Below, piece by piece: positions 1-55,741 of a stretch of DNA of 64,000 nt. A program made the position numbers and the translations under genes. Each line of letters opens with the position of its first letter. The stretch's first letter is position 1. Below the pieces are notes generated by a model. The model was given only the letters and a program-made list of their open reading frames with translations, was not told the origin of the DNA and made no database searches. Source of the DNA: Candidatus Latescibacterota bacterium. GTDB lineage: Bacteria > Latescibacterota > UBA2968 > GCA-2709665. The DNA is taken from positions 1,248,001 to 1,312,000 of the forward strand of contig OZ244937.1 of the NCBI GenBank assembly GCA_965222075.1, read 5' to 3'.

Positions 1-1438
1 GGCCCGCGGGCGGCTGGGCGCGGTTCGTTTGATTCAACTTAGAAATCTGACAAAGATCTACGGCGCCCCGGGCCGCTTCAGACGGGAATGGGCGCGGTAT
101 ATTCGGCGTGTGCAGCGGCTGCAGGCCGAAGGGGCAGACCCGGTTGACCGGAAGGCGGTCAAAGAGGGCCTGGTGTGGAAGCTGCCGCTGCTGGGGCTGA
201 TCGGGTACCTCCATACCTATTTTGAGGAGGGAATGTGGATCTACATCCATTCCCTGGTCACCTGGGGGATGCTGGCTCACCTGGCGCAGGCGGGGGCGGT
301 TCTCCGGCCGTTTGAGGTCCGGCTGCCCGGGTGGATACGACGGGCGGGGAGGGGGGGGGTGCGCAATCTTCTGCCGGCCCTCTTTCTGGGCTATATCCAC
401 TGGCGCTTGCGCCTGCCGTCGGTGACCGTGGCGTCTGCGGCGGTCTGGCTGGTCCTCCGTCTGGTCCGTTTTCTGGCCGGGCGGGTGCGGGACGGACGGG
501 TGGATGTGGAGAAGATCACCGGGCGGCTGGGCTTTCTGAGGCGCTGGACCTACCGCGGAGCCTGCGCACTGCCCCTCATCGGGGTGCCCAGGCCGGCGTT
601 CCGGGCCCTCTCGGGCGTGGACCTGGAGATCGGCCGGGGGATGTTCGGGCTTCTGGGCCCCAACGGGGCGGGGAAGACCACCCTGATGCGGATCGTCTGT
701 CAGGTGCTGGAGCCGAGTTATGGATCGGTGAGCATCGACGGCCGCAATGTGCTGCGGGAGGGACGCATCCAGGGCCTGGTCGGGTACCTGCCCCAGCATT
801 TTGGGCACTACAACCACCTTTCGGCCTATGCGTTCTTAGAATACCGTGCGCTTCTGGAAGGGCTTCGAGATGGGGCCGAACGGCGTGCCCGGGTGCTGGC
901 GTGCTTAGAGCAGGTCAACCTCACAGACCGGAAGGAAGACCCGATCGGGTCCTTTTCGGGAGGGATGAAGCAGCGGGTGGGCATTGCGCAGACCCTGCTG
1001 CACATGCCCCGGATTATTGTAGTGGACGAGCCGACCGCCGGGCTCGACCCGTTAGAGCGCATCCGGTTTCGCAACCTTTTGGCCCGGGTGAGCCAGGACC
1101 GGATTGTGATCTTCTCCACCCATATCGTAGAGGATATTTCGGGCAGTTGCAACCGGCTGGCGGTCCTCAACGCCGGGCGCCTGCTGTATACCGGCACTCC
1201 CCAGTCCATGCGCGACCTGGCCCGGGGACGGGTGTGGGAAGCGGTGATTGCGGAGGGTGCCTTCTTGCAGGTTGAACGGGAGCTGAACCTGATTTCGCAC
1301 GTGCGGACGCCGTCCGGGGTGCGGGCAAGGTTCCTCTCAGAGGCCCCTTCCCGGGACTTCCACGCCCAGCAGGTTGATCCAACGCTTGAGGATGCCTATC
1401 TCTATCTCCTCAGGCAGGAGAGGGGCACCCCATGTTGA
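1..1438 (+). CDS. ABC transporter ATP-binding domain with a membrane-helix insertion; 5'-partial, probably the C-terminus of a larger fusion protein
   Basis: Walker [10 protein letters not shown], signature FSGGMKQR, Walker B IIVVDEP, H-loop STHIV. The frame is open to the window edge. About 180 partly hydrophobic aa lie between IQLRNLTKIYG and ALSGVDLEI. Confidence 0.85.
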   Translation, partial: ARGRLGAVRLIQLRNLTKIYGAPGRFRREWARYIRRVQRLQAEGADPVDRKAVKEGLVWKLPLLGLIGYLHTYFEEGMWIYIHSLVTWGMLAHLAQAGAVLRPFEVRLPGWIRRAGRGGVRNLLPALFLGYIHWRLRLPSVTVASAAVWLVLRLVRFLAGRVRDGRVDVEKITGRLGFLRRWTYRGACALPLIGVPRPAFRALSGVDLEIGRGMFGLLGPNGAGKTTLMRIVCQVLEPSYGSVSIDGRNVLREGRIQGLVGYLPQHFGHYNHLSAYAFLEYRALLEGLRDGAERRARVLACLEQVNLTDRKEDPIGSFSGGMKQRVGIAQTLLHMPRIIVVDEPTAGLDPLERIRFRNLLARVSQDRIVIFSTHIVEDISGSCNRLAVLNAGRLLYTGTPQSMRDLARGRVWEAVIAEGAFLQVERELNLISHVRTPSGVRARFLSEAPSRDFHAQQVDPTLEDAYLYLLRQERGTPC

Positions 1439-49914: not shown

Positions 49915-50613
49915 CTACGGGGTATTCAAGCATCTGTATTTGAAGATTGTAAAGAGGATTTTCCAACCTGCTTTCAGGGTTCCTTTCACCGTACCGGTAA
50001 TTTTGGAAACGCCAATTCGACGTCGGTAGCTTACCGGCACCTCCTCTATTTTCAGTCCCTGCCTGGCCGCTTTGACCTGCATTTCCACGGTCCATCCAAA
50101 CGTCTTATCCTGCATATCCAGTTCTTTGAGTACCGGATAGCGAACCGCCCGGAAGGGTCCCAGGTCGGTATACCGCGTGCGGAAGAGACACCGGATGAGC
50201 CGGGTGGCCAGCCAGTTGCCGAACCAGGCCTGAGGCAGGAGCGCCCCGGGTTCCCTGCGGCCCAGGATGCGGGAACCGATCACGAGGTCGGCGCGGTGCT
50301 GGAGGATGGGGCCCACCAGATGGGGCATTTCGTCGGGGTGGTCGCTGTAGTCTCCGTCCAGAAAGACTACGATATCGGGCCGATTCAGGGCAGCCATACC
50401 CGCCAGACAGGCAAAGCCGTATCCTCTTTGGTCCTCCCGCACGATACGGGCGCCCATTTCGGCGGCCAGCCGGGCGGTTTGATCGGTTGACCCGTTGTCT
50501 ACCACCACGACCTCTGTGACAAGGCCGGAGGGGATATCGGCGATCACGTTCCGGATGGCCTCTTGTTCGTTGAACACGGGAATGATGACGGAGATGCGCG
50601 GAGAGGAGGACAT
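49915..50613 (-). CDS. Family 2 glycosyltransferase
   Basis: SVIIPVFNE, VVDNGSTD, FLDGD, TDLGPFRA, GWTVEMQ. Confidence 0.92.
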   Translation of the reverse strand: MSSSPRISVIIPVFNEQEAIRNVIADIPSGLVTEVVVVDNGSTDQTARLAAEMGARIVREDQRGYGFACLAGMAALNRPDIVVFLDGDYSDHPDEMPHLVGPILQHRADLVIGSRILGRREPGALLPQAWFGNWLATRLIRCLFRTRYTDLGPFRAVRYPVLKELDMQDKTFGWTVEMQVKAARQGLKIEEVPVSYRRRIGVSKITGTVKGTLKAGWKILFTIFKYRCLNTP

Positions 50614-50663
50614 GGGATTTCGGATCTCTGCTTTGCTGGATGCTACGTCTATACCGCCTCTTT

Positions 50664-51857
50664 CTAACCCCCAGACCCTGCTTTTCTGAGGGTCTCGGGG
50701 ACAAGGAGGGCAAAGGTGCCGACGGCCAGGAGGCCGATGCCGGAAATGGCAAAGGTGGCGGCGGAGAGGCTGAGGAGGTCTGCGATGCCCCCTACAACCA
50801 GCGGGCTGCCCATGTCCCCGCCATCTCCGATGAGCCGCCAGATGGCCAGGAATTCGCCTATGGATTCTCCGGGCGCCAGGTCGGCGCCCAGGGTCATCAT
50901 AGACCCCGAGCCGAGGCCGTTTCCCAGCCCGATGACGCTGGTGGCCAGGAGCAGGCCGAAAAAGCTGCCGGTGAACGGGATGAGGCTCATGCCCACCGTC
51001 TGAGTGAGGAAGCTGGGTACAGTGGCGTATTTTCGCCCGTACCGGTCCATCATCAGGCCGGCAGGGTAGAACATGGACATATCGAGGAAGGCGGAGACGC
51101 TGAGGATCCATCCGACGGCCTGGACGTTCAGCCCGATGATGTCGGCGGCGTAGAGCGGGACAATGACGTGCCGGCCTTTTCGGAGCGTCTGGGCAAAGAG
51201 CTGCCCCGAACCCGCTGTGGCCAGCTGCCGGTAGTGAGATTTGAAGACGCCAAAGAGGTGGCCCAGTTGTCCCTCTGGTGCGGAACCGGACACGCGGGTT
51301 TTTTCGATGGTGAGCGCCGAGGTGACGATCGTCAGAACGGCCAGTCCGGCATAGATGAGAAAGGCGCTCTTGAGCCCGTACAGGGCGCCAAACACACCCC
51401 CGACCGCGGGGCCTGCGAAGGTGCCGATGCGGTTGATGCCTCCAAAGACCGAGATGGCCCGGCCCCGCTGATAGGGGGATGTGACGCTGGCCAGATAGGT
51501 ATGGCGGGAGATGTTCCAGAGGGCGCCGCCGATTCCAGCGGCAAGACGATAGAGGACGACCTCGAAGACGGTCTGCGCCCAGACAAGGGCCAGGACGGAA
51601 AGGGCAACACAGGTGACGCCGAAGACCATAACCGGTTTTCTGCCGATTTTCCTGAGGAGGATGCCGGTGGGGAGATCGCCTGTCAGGTGCCCGATTCCTT
51701 CGGCGGCCAGGATGAGTCCGATCAGGCCATAAGAGGTGGCAAACGATTTGGCATAGAGGGGCAGGATGGGAATGATCATCCCGCGACCAAAGGAGAGAAT
51801 GAGGGTGGGGAGGTAGACGGGAAGGATGAGGCGGGTGCGGTTGTTTGCCTGGCTCAT
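50664..51857 (-). CDS. MFS transporter
   Basis: About 12 TM segments; motif A variants LRKIGRK and MDRYGRK. Confidence 0.9.
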   Translation of the reverse strand: MSQANNRTRLILPVYLPTLILSFGRGMIIPILPLYAKSFATSYGLIGLILAAEGIGHLTGDLPTGILLRKIGRKPVMVFGVTCVALSVLALVWAQTVFEVVLYRLAAGIGGALWNISRHTYLASVTSPYQRGRAISVFGGINRIGTFAGPAVGGVFGALYGLKSAFLIYAGLAVLTIVTSALTIEKTRVSGSAPEGQLGHLFGVFKSHYRQLATAGSGQLFAQTLRKGRHVIVPLYAADIIGLNVQAVGWILSVSAFLDMSMFYPAGLMMDRYGRKYATVPSFLTQTVGMSLIPFTGSFFGLLLATSVIGLGNGLGSGSMMTLGADLAPGESIGEFLAIWRLIGDGGDMGSPLVVGGIADLLSLSAATFAISGIGLLAVGTFALLVPETLRKAGSGG

Positions 51858-51906
51858 GGACTTTCCGGGCGTTGAATTGGGGCGTATGAAGCTGAATAAG
51901 GCCTAT

Positions 51907-51935
51907 ATAGTAACGACCTGGGGGGGATTTGTCAA
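51907..51935 (-). promoter_or_regulatory. Sigma70 promoter of the MFS-GT2 operon
   Basis: Minus strand TTGACA-17 nt-TACTAT. Confidence 0.6.
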
Positions 51936-52014
51936 GGAGGAGCTGGGGCATTGACACCCGATCAGGTGAGGCTGTTTCGCCACAACGGGAATGCATAGGG
52001 GTGTGGGAGGGTAT

Positions 52015-52737
52015 GTGACGCCCGAGACCGTCTTCTATGTGAGCGGGGTGATGTGGCTGGCTGCGAGCCTTCAGGGAGTGGCGGGGTTCGGATTTATGAT
52101 GCTGGCGGTACCGGGGTTGATCCTGGGGGCGCCGGCACAGGTGGTGGTTCCGGCCCTGATCCTGACCTGGCTGCCGCTTGGAACGGTGCAGGTGGTGCAG
52201 CTCCGCGCGAATGTAGACTGGGGGCTCCTGGCCTATCTGGTGGCCAGCGCCGCGTTCGGGTTGCCCCTGGGAGCGGTCATTTTGCGGGAGACCGATACGG
52301 AGACCATGCGGCGGGGAATTGGCGGGGTGTTGGTGGCGCTGGCCCTGCTTCTTCAGATGAAGCCCGGGGTGCCGCTTCGGCGTGAGGGGGCCGCCCGGGT
52401 GGGCGCAGGGTTTATCGCCGGGGTACTGGCGTCCGGCACGTCGGTGTCCGGGCCGCCCCTGGTGCTGCTGGGGGTGAAGCAGCGGTGGCAGGCGGACCGG
52501 TTTCGGGCGACGCTGCCGGCCTATTTTCTGGCGGTCTCCGTATTGTGCCTGCCCATCCACTGGGAAATGGATTTGCTGAACCGGGCAAGTGTTCAGCTGG
52601 CGGTAAGCGGCCTGCCCGGTGTGGTCCTGGGATATGCGACGGGAATCTGGCTGAAGGGGCGGGTCGGCGAAGCGTGGTTCCGGTGGGTGGTCCTGGGGAT
52701 GGTGATGGGGGGAGGGCTGGCGGCGGTGATGCTGTGA
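52015..52737 (+). CDS. TauE/SafE sulfite exporter family protein
   Basis: QGVAGFGF, GLPLG, SVSGPP, FRATL; hydrophobic. Confidence 0.85.
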   Translation: MTPETVFYVSGVMWLAASLQGVAGFGFMMLAVPGLILGAPAQVVVPALILTWLPLGTVQVVQLRANVDWGLLAYLVASAAFGLPLGAVILRETDTETMRRGIGGVLVALALLLQMKPGVPLRREGAARVGAGFIAGVLASGTSVSGPPLVLLGVKQRWQADRFRATLPAYFLAVSVLCLPIHWEMDLLNRASVQLAVSGLPGVVLGYATGIWLKGRVGEAWFRWVVLGMVMGGGLAAVML

Positions 52738-52810
52738 AATAAGATATGGTTGTGCCACTTCACTGGAGGATCCGATGGACGCGGACATTTGGAGGGCAGG
52801 AGAAATCTCC

Positions 52811-52839
52811 TTGACATCCGGCAGGAAAAACCGTACATT
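52811..52839 (+). promoter_or_regulatory. Sigma70 promoter of the structured RNA region
   Basis: TTGACA-17 nt-TACATT. Confidence 0.7.
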
Positions 52840-52845
52840 TTAACT

Positions 52846-53336
52846 TGAATCGAGAACCGATGTGATGTGCGGCAGCCATCCGAAAAGGTTCGGGTTTCGG
52901 CCGGGCGGTTTGCGTTACATGCATGCTTTGTCAGAGCTTTCGCTGACGGGAATCCAAATTCCAAAAGATGTGGATGGCGCAGGCCAAAGGCCTGATTGAA
53001 CAGAACCGCGGATGGGAGTTGCGGGCCGTGTGAACCTGCGATAGGAGGGGAATATGCCACCGGACAGGTTTGTGCGGCCGCGATGCGATGAGAGGTATCA
53101 GGAGTTTCATCGCGGCCGTTGAAACAAGGAGGTCATATGCAGTCGGCTGGATTTGTGCGGCCGCGACGGTGGTGAGCAGGGTTGTTCTTCGTCGCGGCCG
53201 TAGCGTTTTTCCAGCAGATATTCAGACGCTGATACGGCTGGCGGACGTGTGGAATCAACCCCGGGGGAGTATCAGCATCTGCCGAAATAGCCGACCGCCT
53301 GGGCTGAGGTAGCGATGCGTCCGGGCGGTTTTGTTC
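52846..53336 (+). ncRNA. Candidate ~490-nt structured RNA or leader of unknown class
   Basis: Promoter, at least six stems, a duplicated hairpin with a compensatory change, terminator; no credible long ORF. Confidence 0.6.
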
Positions 53337-53339
53337 TTT
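53293..53339 (+). terminator. Intrinsic terminator-like hairpin
   Basis: GACCGCCTGGGC / GTCCGGGCGGTT 12-bp stem followed by TTGTTCTTT. Confidence 0.65.
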
Positions 53340-53388
53340 GTGAAGAAAGAAAGATGATCCACGATAATTCGGTGAGGGGAGGACGTGC

Positions 53389-54351
53389 ATGAAAATTGTA
53401 CTGTACCCACCGGTGAGCGAGGACCTGTATGAGCGGGTGCGGCAAACAGCGCCTGAGGCCGAGGTGATGATGGCGGATGAGGAGAACGTCATTGCGGCTG
53501 TGGCCGATGCGGAGGTGCTGTTCGGATTTTTTTCAAAGGAGGAGATCCAGGCTGCACAAAGGCTGAAGTGGATCCAGTCCACCAGCGCAGGGATGGAGAA
53601 GCAGCTCGATATTCCGGAGGTCCGGGACAGCGATGTGATCATCTGCAGCGCCAGCGGCCTGCACGCGATTCAGGTGGCCGAGCACGCCTGGGCGCTGACG
53701 GCGGCGCTCTTCCGCGGCCTGTACGTCTTTTTTCGGAACCAGCTTGCGCACCGGTGGCAGGGGGCCCCGCTGGCGGACCTGTACGGCGCAACGGCCGGCA
53801 TTGTGGGATTCGGGGGGATCGGCCGGCAGTACGCGCAGCGGGCGCAGGCTTTCAGGATGCGCATCCTGGCCGTGGACGTCCAGGGGGGAGACAAACCGGC
53901 GTTTGTGGAGTCGCTGTGGGGGATCGACCGCTTGGACGATCTGCTGAAGGAGGCGGATGTGGTATGCTTAGCCTGCCCGCACACACCGGAGACGGAGAAG
54001 CTGATCGACGCGAGGGCGCTGAAGCTGATGAAGAAGACGGCGTTCCTGGTCAATACGGCGCGGGGACCGGTCGTGGATGAGGCCGCGCTTATCGAGGCCC
54101 TGAAGGCGGGGGAGATCGCGGGTGCGGGGCTGGATGTGTTCGAGGTGGAGCCGCTGCCTGCGGAGAGCCCGCTGTGGGATATGGAGAATGTGATCGTTAC
54201 CACCCACTCGGCCGGCGGATCGAGCTACCGCCACCGGCGGACGGTGGAATTTTTCTGCGAGAACCTGAAACGCTACCTGGCCGGCGAACCGCTCCTGAAC
54301 GAGGTGGACAAGACGCTCGGGTATCCCCTGCTGGACCGGCGGGCACAATAA
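53389..54351 (+). CDS. D-2-hydroxyacid dehydrogenase
   Basis: VAEHA, GFGGIG, PHTPET, NTARG, GLDVFEVEPL. Confidence 0.92.
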   Translation: MKIVLYPPVSEDLYERVRQTAPEAEVMMADEENVIAAVADAEVLFGFFSKEEIQAAQRLKWIQSTSAGMEKQLDIPEVRDSDVIICSASGLHAIQVAEHAWALTAALFRGLYVFFRNQLAHRWQGAPLADLYGATAGIVGFGGIGRQYAQRAQAFRMRILAVDVQGGDKPAFVESLWGIDRLDDLLKEADVVCLACPHTPETEKLIDARALKLMKKTAFLVNTARGPVVDEAALIEALKAGEIAGAGLDVFEVEPLPAESPLWDMENVIVTTHSAGGSSYRHRRTVEFFCENLKRYLAGEPLLNEVDKTLGYPLLDRRAQ

Positions 54352-54412: not shown

Positions 54413-55741
54413 GTGGCTGAGATCAGGCCCTTTCGGGGCATCCGCTACGACACCGACCGGGTGGGAGACGCAGGACGGGTGGTCGCCCCCCCGTACGATG
54501 TGATTGACGATGCGCTGCAGCAGGCGCTTTATGAGACGCATCCGAACAATGTGGTGCGGATTATCCGGGGTCGGGACGAGGCGGGTGACTCCGACGCGAA
54601 CAACCGCTACACCCGGGCGGCCGAGGCGTTTCGGGACTGGCAGACGGAGGGGGTGCTTCGGCGGGACGAGGAGGAGGGGATCTACCTCTACGCGCAGGAT
54701 TTCGAGGCGATCACACCGGCCGGGCCGGTCCCCAAGTCCCGGCTGGGGATTGTGACGCTGGTCCGGGTGGAGCCGTTTGGAGAGGGATATATTCTGCCGC
54801 ACGAACATACGATGCCGGGGCCCAAGGTGGACCGCTTAGCGTTGATGCGGCATATCGGGGCGACGTGCGGACAGATCTTTTCGCTGTATTCCGACCCGGA
54901 AGGCCGGGTTCGTGATGTTTTAAAAGGGCATCTTGAGGGTGAGCCCCTGTTTGGGTTTGAGGACCGGGAGGGGGTACAGCACCGGCTCTGGCGCGTGGCC
55001 GACCGGGAAGCGATCGAGGGGGTGGCGGCGTTTCTGGCCGACAAGCCGCTTTTTATCGCAGACGGTCACCACCGCTACGAGACCGCGGTGGTCTACCGGG
55101 ACGAACGGGCGCTGGCCGAAGGGGTCGCCCCGGACGGACAGCCTTATGGGTACCGCATGCAGACGCTGGTGAATATGGACGATACGGAGGGGATGGCGAT
55201 CTACCCCATCCACCGGGTGGTGATGGACCTGGGCGCCGACGGCGTTGCCCGGCTTGAGGCGGGGCTGCAGGAGCTGTTCGACGTGGAGCGGGCGTCCCTG
55301 GGGGAGACCCGCGAGGCGCTGCGGGAACTCCGGCGAGGAGGCCGGCAACAGGTGTTCGGGTTCTGCACGGGGGAAGCGAAGGAGGTCCAGTACCTGACCC
55401 TGAAACCGTCTGTCGATCCGGCAGCGCTGGACAAAGAGGAACACTCATCGGCCTGGCGTGGGCTGAATTCGGGACTGCTGCAACTCGTCCTGGGACACAT
55501 TCTGGACCTGGATTCCGAGACACTGACCCGGGGGGAGAAGGTGAAGTTTGTGAAGGTGGAGGCGGAGGCGCTCAGCCTGCTGAAGGAGGCGCCGGACAGG
55601 GCCGGGTTTTTCCTGAATCCGGTGGATATGGCGCGGCTGCGGGAGGTGGTCTTGGCCGGCGAGCGGATGCCGCCCAAGTCGACGTTTTTCTACCCCAAGG
55701 TCTACAGCGGGCTGGTGATTCAGGATTTGAATGCGTTTTAA
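54413..55741 (+). CDS. DUF1015 family protein
   Basis: APPYDVI, ILPHEHT, IADGHHRYETA, MPPKSTFFYPK. Confidence 0.92.
   Translation: MAEIRPFRGIRYDTDRVGDAGRVVAPPYDVIDDALQQALYETHPNNVVRIIRGRDEAGDSDANNRYTRAAEAFRDWQTEGVLRRDEEEGIYLYAQDFEAITPAGPVPKSRLGIVTLVRVEPFGEGYILPHEHTMPGPKVDRLALMRHIGATCGQIFSLYSDPEGRVRDVLKGHLEGEPLFGFEDREGVQHRLWRVADREAIEGVAAFLADKPLFIADGHHRYETAVVYRDERALAEGVAPDGQPYGYRMQTLVNMDDTEGMAIYPIHRVVMDLGADGVARLEAGLQELFDVERASLGETREALRELRRGGRQQVFGFCTGEAKEVQYLTLKPSVDPAALDKEEHSSAWRGLNSGLLQLVLGHILDLDSETLTRGEKVKFVKVEAEALSLLKEAPDRAGFFLNPVDMARLREVVLAGERMPPKSTFFYPKVYSGLVIQDLNAF

Follow-up and report, generated by a model that had tools for sequence, protein, structure and literature searches.

Tandem hairpin units form the 3' part of a conserved structured RNA

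Two tandem units, each combining a Shine-Dalgarno (SD) sequence, a start codon and a hairpin, lie in a 64,000-nucleotide stretch of a Candidatus Latescibacterota genome (assembly GCA_965222075.1, contig OZ244937.1, positions 1,248,001 to 1,312,000; hereafter the window) and constitute the 3' part, or 'expression platform', of a conserved, independently transcribed structured RNA of about 360 nt. We are confident that the units belong to this conserved RNA and that it carries a translated frame. How the RNA works can be stated more tentatively: ribosome-mediated attenuation gated by formation of a Pro-Pro bond may explain it, with a chance that we put at even or somewhat less. G000 denotes the genome that contains the window (5.36 Mb), G001 a genome of the same genus and G004 one of another genus; other genomes, loci, families and genera carry G, L, f and g numbers where they have to be told apart.

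Direct reading of the locus gives two head-to-tail 83-nt units (Table 1) that have in common a strong SD, an ATG, a 17-nt left arm starting TTTGTGCGGCCGCGA and a right arm ending TCGCGGCCGT. The original prediction had described such tandem units, with a compensatory swap in the stems and unrelated loops, and all of this holds. A repeat search of the window reported direct repeats at spacings of 83 and 82 as well as two inverted repeats (I1, 18 nt and 83% complementary; I6, 11 nt and 100%), and global alignment of the units yields 59/83 identical bases. Between the units, identity reaches 35/46 in the segment from SD to left arm and 12/15 in the right arm, scores that 0/2000 shuffles match in either case, whereas the loops agree at 12/22 positions, a chance level that 45% of 2000 shuffles attain. 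The stem swap, U53084-A53109 in unit 1 and C53167-G53191 in unit 2, is common to G000, G001 and G004. Tandem Repeats Finder returned no entry at a score of 30 or more because the unit copies are too diverged.

Hairpin 1 is located entirely within the first open reading frame (ORF1), with the stop codon immediately 3' of its right arm. The right arm is thus coding in unit 1; its conservation in unit 2, where it is non-coding, argues that the stems are maintained by pairing and not by the peptide. Hairpin 2 is lengthened by GCUGGA/UCCAGC pairing (53144-53149 with 53210-53215) and followed by a U5 run at 53206-53210, which makes it terminator-like, though non-canonical. ORF1 ends 14 nt ahead of the start codon of ORF2, with the second SD in between, a spacing that could be compatible with translational coupling of both frames.

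The 5' domain folds into a rod closed by three helices, P0, P1 and P2. The tip of the rod consists of two small hairpins (GUCAG..CUGAC and GGAAU..AUUCC), and the domain carries a GAAA(N) bulge and an internal loop of conserved sequence GAGUUG. A variable linker of 10-25 nt separates it from a GAGGAGG-like SD and the start codon. The roughly 190 nt between the promoter and unit 1 fold unusually well, the minimum free energy z-score being -4.37 for 52848-53215. This aptamer-like fold is supported by covariation. Across 31 copies, 81.3% of cells are paired compared to 66.5% after shuffling, and the covariation score is 0.342 compared to 0.156, a value that 0/500 shuffles reach; slid partners score 0.05-0.09. 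Since the 31-copy alignment was model-fitted and leans towards the model, the test was repeated with MAFFT and RNAalifold on 20 copies, which recovers P0 (4 bp), P1 (6 bp) and P2 (5 bp); 10 of their 15 pairs show compensatory changes. Two covariance models were built, R1 from five copies and the more general R2 from 20 diverse 5' domains; P0, which is absent from R1, is paired in 87.9% of cells.

A sigma-70-like promoter precedes the RNA and is the only plus-strand promoter-like site in 52600-53500 (10/12 matches; shuffle mean 0.2). It is invariant in G001 and G004, and 24 of 31 loci possess a TTGnnn-16..18-TAnnnT site 16-39 nt upstream of the RNA. Contigs from four metatranscriptome libraries of one study run from 52858/52866 to 53453-53510 with 0-1 differences at a word depth of 418-1385, and begin 12-20 nt past the start that the promoter implies. 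Their span takes in both units, the adjoining ZTP riboswitch aptamer and the first 65-120 nt of the following dehydrogenase frame, and they demonstrate this bridging while giving neither transcript ends nor levels. Contig cover is absent on 52500-52857 and thin (depth 2.3-4.2) beyond 53595, which we do not use as evidence for ends or level. Unit 2 of G004 is separated from the ZTP riboswitch by a strong terminator, a promoter and a 1.6-kb gene, indicating that the unit-bearing RNA is not part of the ZTP leader.

The frame begins with a conserved Met-Pro-Pro signature

To examine the frame we used 43 distinct copies, namely R2 matches from which duplicate sequences and partial matches below 150 nt were dropped, except for the L035/L222 mini-copy; L050 falls outside this count, its E value with R2 being above 0.001. 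Of the aligned start codons, 38 are AUG, four GUG and one UUG, and codons 2 and 3 encode Pro-Pro in 39/43. Codon 2 is CCA (28) or CCG (11) and codon 3 is CCG (20), CCA (12) or CCU (7). Among 29 distinct sequences analysed first, no variation is seen at positions 1-5 and 7 and a single change at position 8, with free variation at the wobble positions 6 and 9. Variation confined to wobble positions, combined with three canonical start codons, points to selection on translation of Met-Pro-Pro rather than on RNA pairing, and on these grounds the SD-ATG frames are very probably translated. ORF2 is conserved in G001 and G004, and a 3-nt deletion in unit 2 of G004 keeps it in frame with the same UGA.

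The hairpin lies at a fixed distance from the start codon

The word GCGG(C/U)(C/U)G, which forms the base of the hairpin left arm, has its first nucleotide at +21 (±1), counted from the A of the start codon, while the 12 nt preceding it are variable. Within the 43-copy set the stop codon is always located at or past codon 7, so that a terminating ribosome would cover the left arm. Families differ in their layout. Copies from f3 and f4 possess a single hairpin, followed by U6-U8, and a 9-codon frame, MPPxxxxR(L/P)-stop, that ends within its left arm. In f1 and f2 there are usually two hairpins, the first spanned by ORF1 and the second being the terminator. Genera g6 and g10 show a second SD with a 4-5-codon frame, its stop abutting the left arm of the terminator, in 11/16 loci, a count based on pattern lists that are incomplete or contain false positives (e.g. 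L209 'MPPR', L050 TTG, L037 GTG, L047 TTG); L031 is organized likewise. ORF2 of G000, G001 and G004 comprises 11-12 codons and stops in the loop. From the two-hairpin and second-SD layouts in f1, f2, g6 and g10, two units in series are an old feature of this order, and the G000 lineage is special only in the mutual resemblance of its two units. The start of arm and loop in unit 2, GCGGCCGyGACGGUGGUGAG, is also found in the single terminator of L041, which belongs to another family.

Cognate left and right arms pair at -27.4 kcal/mol compared to -20.9 kcal/mol for non-cognate arms. Constrained folding of G000 retains hairpin 2 unless a ribosome-sized block covers its left arm.

The RNA is widespread in the class and its units are unique within the G000 genome

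The arm 15-mer TTTGTGCGGCCGCGA occurs exactly twice in the window, where 0.27 occurrences are expected and 3/100 shuffles reach two, and exactly twice in the 5.36-Mb genome, both times at this locus. The remaining 13 genome matches have two mismatches, and a reversed control pattern gives 23. BLAST of the units against their own genome returned only self-matches and chance words of at most 16 nt. Searches for loop targets, in which both loops, both units and the whole RNA were compared with the own genome and phage collections were left aside, likewise yielded chance words; the loops match at 11-14 nt only, the best 13-14 nt matches having E 0.15 or worse, and they differ freely between genera. 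Further units were found in relatives alone, in homologous loci with SD, ATG and stems all conserved; loss of these features in such loci, or scatter of the units across the genome, would have spoken against the original prediction.

Among 61 related genomes, BLAST detects the whole region in G001 (90% identity) and G004 (75%) and pieces of it in G003 and G058. Full-length R1 matches are present in 7/22 genomes of the family, 14/53 of the order and 32/132 of the class, and in 26/151 genomes of a phylum-wide sample, with none in 36 genomes from ten other families of the phylum. R2 matches 51/132 class genomes, distributed over f2 (28/31), f4 (2/3), f3 (11/76) and f1 (9/21). All 21 genomes of the f2 genus g6 are matched, and the f1 genus g2 has three weak partial matches among 15 genomes. 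A pattern scan of the genome contigs gave at least 119 stretches; R1 run on 80 listed loci produced three clear matches at E<0.001 (L071, L091, L113) and two weak ones (E 0.29 and 0.35).

Two R2 matches each occur in G007, G037, G038, G050 and G051, the second in G037 being weak and partial. The extra copies L032 (G007) and L220 (G051) retain the SD, a GUG start and the layout of an ORF within a hairpin, and Pro-Pro is absent from them. A mini-copy of about 100 nt in G050 (L222:501-602) comprises only P0-P2, an SD and a 6-codon frame, and is arranged in tandem just upstream of a full copy that precedes a CBS gene.

No Rfam family covers the RNA in eight loci (those of G000, G001, G003, G004 and G058 plus three further ones). 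A cmscan of 52830-53225 at E up to 10 gave a snoRNA chance match only, and Rfam 15 had no match over the RNA in L011, L017 and L023 at E up to 1 or in L010, L033, L036 and L042 at E up to 0.1. The sole true Rfam match in the region is the adjoining ZTP aptamer. The 6S RNA model RF00013 has no match in G000, whose tmRNA is located at C1:3425700-3426064, and a 6S-like reading was set aside given that the fold has no large central bubble. Our literature search, which did not extend to supplements with motif lists, found nothing on this RNA.

Genes adjoining the RNA differ between genera. Conservation of a downstream gene was not found in 31 loci: a CBS gene follows in four and a ZTP riboswitch follows directly in two, and elsewhere second terminators or convergent genes come next. 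In the former four, all f2 genomes, the RNA lies directly upstream of a gene for a 145-aa CBS-pair protein (PF00571, 7.6e-28), of which no close relative was found in G000 (best 34% identity). In L034 and L037, C-rich tracts (CCCUCCCCC-like) occur shortly upstream of the SD of the CBS gene, and many hairpin loops in other genera end in CUCCC; both could be anti-SD elements. Downstream of the RNA in G003 (L023:1070-1141, minus strand), a weak match to RF00029, the model of the catalytic domain of group II introns, was observed (28 bits, E 0.029, below the gathering score).

Pro-Pro-gated attenuation as a possible mechanism

Pro-Pro bond formation is slow and dependent on EF-P, a gene for which is present in G000. 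Judging from ribosome footprint sizes, a ribosome holding fMet-Pro in its P site and Pro-tRNA in its A site would extend to about +19/+20. In the mechanism that we favor, the mini-ORF would be translated and the ribosome itself would serve as the antiterminator. A ribosome held at fMet-Pro-Pro, through the slow bond, limited EF-P or limited prolyl-tRNA, would have its leading edge just short of the hairpin base; the hairpin would fold, and transcription would end or the RNA would stay closed. A ribosome that has moved past Pro-Pro would melt the hairpin and permit read-through. G000, G001 and G004 may use a two-step version running from ORF1 to ORF2 to hairpin 2, in which translation of ORF1 would proceed through all of hairpin 1 and that of ORF2 through the left arm of hairpin 2, stopping in the loop. 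Read-through would enter the ZTP riboswitch and the 2-hydroxyacid-dehydrogenase/DUF1015 operon in G000, and the CBS-pair gene in four f2 genomes. In most of the remaining genomes a strong second terminator comes next, which would make the RNA itself the product.

Several observations weigh against this mechanism. Four of the 43 copies have no Pro-Pro (L029 encodes Pro-Leu; L032, L220 and the L035/L222 mini-copy have other codons), and in genus g6 the fourth residue is Ile. To our knowledge, Pro-Pro-Ile is not among the strongest EF-P-dependent motifs. Overlap of the ORF with an intrinsic terminator is seen in the f3 and f4 copies and only partly in G000, because the U5 run of the non-canonical hairpin 2 lies 5 nt past the stem, where it is paired in the extended helix. 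The stem itself is strong. A terminator scan has no entry for this hairpin, and RNA contigs, which cannot show 3' ends, pass straight through it. No downstream gene is conserved, and most copies end in double terminators with unrelated genes after them, which fits an RNA product better than a leader. The mechanism leaves the large conserved 5' domain without a role, and its stall-to-termination logic is the reverse of that in classical trp/his attenuators.

Results on two candidate pairings count against the mechanism as well. The A:B antiterminator, a pairing of the P0 3' strand region with the left arm, reaches -28.7 to -34.5 kcal/mol in G000, G001 and G004, but family-wide it gains nothing over controls, standing at -20.5 kcal/mol compared to -20.1 kcal/mol for non-cognate arms, with z -0.38 relative to shuffled arms. 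Constrained folding never gives the C:D relay pairing as the minimum-energy structure, and this pairing was dropped.

A wider reading joins these elements in a riboregulator of a new class, carried by a stand-alone RNA in a phylum that is largely uncultured. The speed of the first two peptide bonds (fMet-Pro-Pro), reflecting EF-P activity, prolyl-tRNA supply or general translation capacity, would set the fold and the 3' end; the 165-nt domain would provide a second input, through a ligand or ribosome contact, or a trans-acting output, and the G000 units would act as a two-ribosome relay in series with the ZTP riboswitch. Taken as a whole, we consider this combination doubtful.

Alternative explanations

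The RNA might be a stand-alone stable RNA that acts in trans or binds a protein or the ribosome, its hairpins being structural 3' elements and terminators and its SD and mini-ORF loading a ribosome mainly to protect or remodel the RNA. The own promoter, the double terminators and the unrelated neighbour genes in most genomes agree with this, as do the second copies devoid of Pro-Pro and the minimal copy L222; the RNA-library contigs, through their high word depth, give no more than a hint in this direction. A loose analogue is rnTrpL, an attenuator-derived small RNA with a leader peptide (PMC7968998). However, no conserved single-stranded seed downstream of the hairpins is apparent by eye, no complementary target longer than chance was found in the own genome, and six copies are directly followed by a gene or riboswitch with no promoter in between. 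On balance, we regard this explanation as unlikely.

A riboswitch is a further candidate, likewise improbable in our estimate. Here the 5' domain would be a ligand-binding aptamer whose P0 competes with the hairpin arms, and the mini-ORFs would be secondary. P0 pairs GCGGC with GCCGY, and the hairpin arms carry the same two words; state I (P0 + B:C + D:E) would terminate and state II (A:B + C:D) would read through. Consistent with such a switch are the large covarying domain with its conserved unpaired nucleotides (the GAAA bulge and GAGUUG loop) and a terminator stem word, GCGGYYG, conserved throughout the class, as is rarely the case for plain terminators. RNAalifold moreover picked the A:B pairing on five sequences, the strong A:B duplex of G000, G001 and G004 encloses the first SD and start codon, and four copies lie directly upstream of the CBS-pair gene. 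The family-wide A:B energies given above speak against it, and the left arm fails to follow P0, which does covary with the 5' end. RNA pairing does not account for wobble-only variation of the proline codons or for AUG, GUG and UUG starts, and most copies regulate no gene. The genes around the RNA suggest no clear candidate ligand.

The original prediction had also offered leader or arrest micropeptides rich in Arg and Pro, and had singled out FVRPR as shared by both peptides. The leader part comes near to the attenuation mechanism that we favor. That the FVRPR-containing, Arg/Pro-rich micropeptides are themselves the functional products is very improbable: the SDs are strong and ORF1 gives almost the same peptide in G000, G001 and G004, but past residue 3 the peptides are wholly unrelated between genera and range from 6 to 32 residues. 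FVRPR is merely a reading of the left arm that relatives do not conserve, and the right arm is conserved even where it does not code. What is conserved is the N-terminal Met-Pro-Pro of unit 1; asked whether the peptide frame or only the pairing is under constraint, the comparison thus answers for Met-Pro-Pro and the stems and against the rest of the peptide.

Palindromic GC-rich stems and variable loops would suit a dispersed repeat of the repetitive extragenic palindrome or miniature inverted-repeat transposable element (REP/MITE) type, or the hairpin scaffolds with guide-like loops suggested by the original prediction, but the genome-wide pattern count and BLAST refute the repeat for G000 (two copies in 5.36 Mb, both here), loop matches stay at chance and the position is fixed inside a conserved RNA, leaving these readings with next to no probability.

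Genomic context of the RNA

The units occupy part of a 650-nt gap that is bounded by a TauE-family gene (51991-52737) on one side and, on the other, by the D-2-hydroxyacid dehydrogenase gene that opens the downstream operon (Table 1). The ZTP aptamer begins 20 nt downstream of unit 2, outside the units, and its terminator, at about 53297-53340, incorporates the CCGCCUGG pseudoknot strand. A ZTP or ZTP-like aptamer directly downstream is found in G000 and G001, the latter scoring 32.7 bits, below the gathering score of 39. In G000 the aptamer is probably on the same transcript as the units. No promoter-like site is present between it and the upstream RNA, and the two regulatory RNAs therefore appear in series.

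Table 1. Positions in the window of the RNA, its parts and the neighbouring features
Feature	Position	Strand	Description
Promoter	52811-52839	+	sigma-70-like, TTGACA-17-TACATT; start site inferred about 52846
Structured 5' domain	52867-53031	+	about 165 nt; rod closed by three helices
Helix P0	52870-52873 with 53025-53028		
Helix P1	about 52876-52882 with 53009-53015		
Helix P2	52887-52891 with 53003-53007		
Unit 1	53040-53122		83 nt
Unit 1 SD	53043-53048	+	AGGAGG
ORF1	53054-53122	+	ATG at 53054; starts Met-Pro-Pro-Asp; peptide MPPDRFVRPRCDERYQEFHRGR; stop TGA 53120-53122
Hairpin 1	53069-53119		left arm TTTGTGCGGCCGCGATG 53069-53085; 22-nt loop 53086-53107; right arm CATCGCGGCCGT 53108-53119
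Unit 2	53123-53205		83 nt
Unit 2 SD	53126-53132	+	AAGGAGG
ORF2	53137-53175	+	ATG at 53137; peptide MQSAGFVRPRRW; stop TGA 53173-53175 inside loop
Hairpin 2	53152-53201	+	left arm 53152-53168; 21-nt loop 53169-53189; right arm 53190-53201
ZTP riboswitch aptamer	53224-53311	+	Rfam RF01750, 53.3 bits, gathering score 39, E 3.5e-07
D-2-hydroxyacid dehydrogenase gene	53389-54351	+	first gene of downstream operon; Pfam PF02826, 7.4e-58
DUF1015 gene	54413-55741	+	Pfam PF06245, 2.7e-85
436-aa ORF			after DUF1015 gene in operon; no Pfam family

On the minus strand, a 957-aa ORF (49915-52788) overlaps the TauE gene, which is encoded opposite to it. The sole Pfam domain of this ORF is GT2 at residues 733-890, and its long N-terminal part probably arises artefactually from GC-rich DNA that leaves the frame open. 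The G004 insert between the RNA and the ZTP riboswitch (L011:1-1317, minus strand) holds an ORF of at least 439 aa with its own promoter and no Pfam family, which is absent at this position in G000 and G001.

Comparison with known regulatory systems

The RNA adds an undescribed family to a phylum with little experimental biology, in which it is nearly universal in f2, and accounts for an intergenic region of 650 nt that had appeared 'empty'. The ZTP-controlled operon of G000 probably has two regulatory RNAs in series. If Pro-Pro-gated attenuation is correct, the RNA would be a natural RNA-built sensor of Pro-Pro peptide-bond formation and open a direct way to study how EF-P or prolyl-tRNA status is monitored by bacteria. 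It would then unite two regulatory principles that are usually separate, a translated leader frame and a covarying RNA domain of large size.

By analogy, leader-peptide attenuators would be the closest functional counterpart of the element, which also recalls the short proline-codon frames in the mgt leaders of Salmonella. As in the trpL, hisL, pheL and leuL attenuators, an SD and a very short frame overlap a terminator hairpin, and the position of the ribosome would decide whether that hairpin forms. Tandem regulatory codons are a further likeness, two Trp in trpL and two Pro here. In contrast to the trpL type, these codons occupy positions 2-3 instead of the middle of the peptide, the frame is preceded by a covarying domain of about 165 nt, and the copies, most of which stand alone, are not followed by an amino-acid biosynthesis operon. 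The logic linking stall to hairpin also appears reversed, and an antiterminator pairing is unsupported family-wide.

The ermCL/catA86L-type leaders, in which drug-dependent arrest controls the SD of a downstream resistance gene, share with the RNA a strong SD, a tiny frame and hairpins in series, and a two-frame relay is possible in both. Unlike them, it has neither a resistance gene nor a conserved arrest motif. The mgt leaders regulate Mg2+ transporters via Rho-dependent termination or translational control. Two reports describe the leaders of Salmonella mgtA and mgtCBR as structured RNAs with short ORFs, mgtL and mgtP, whose proline codons make translation depend on EF-P or proline supply and thereby select between RNA folds (PMC6460261, PMC5299641). 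A structured leader RNA with a short proline-codon frame is common to both systems, whereas sequence, fold and phylum are unrelated, and here Pro-Pro comes right after the start codon with a hairpin of the intrinsic-terminator type at a fixed distance. Sinorhizobium rnTrpL, which encodes the leader peptide peTrpL (PMC7968998), is similar in being a short transcript with an SD, a mini-ORF and a terminator that forms an RNA species of its own; it is linked to trp genes and is not known to possess a large 5' domain.

Riboswitches with a terminator platform, such as the adjoining ZTP riboswitch (RF01750), also combine an aptamer-like fold, here closed by P0/P1, with a hairpin and U-run, and the succession of two regulatory RNAs before one operon in G000 recalls tandem riboswitch arrangements. 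Unlike in riboswitches, an alternative pairing that would connect domain and hairpin is not seen family-wide, and a translated frame is conserved. Four features distinguish this RNA from the attenuators and mgt leaders that it most resembles: Pro-Pro right after the start codon, a fixed distance to the hairpin, a large covarying 5' domain and frequent stand-alone status.

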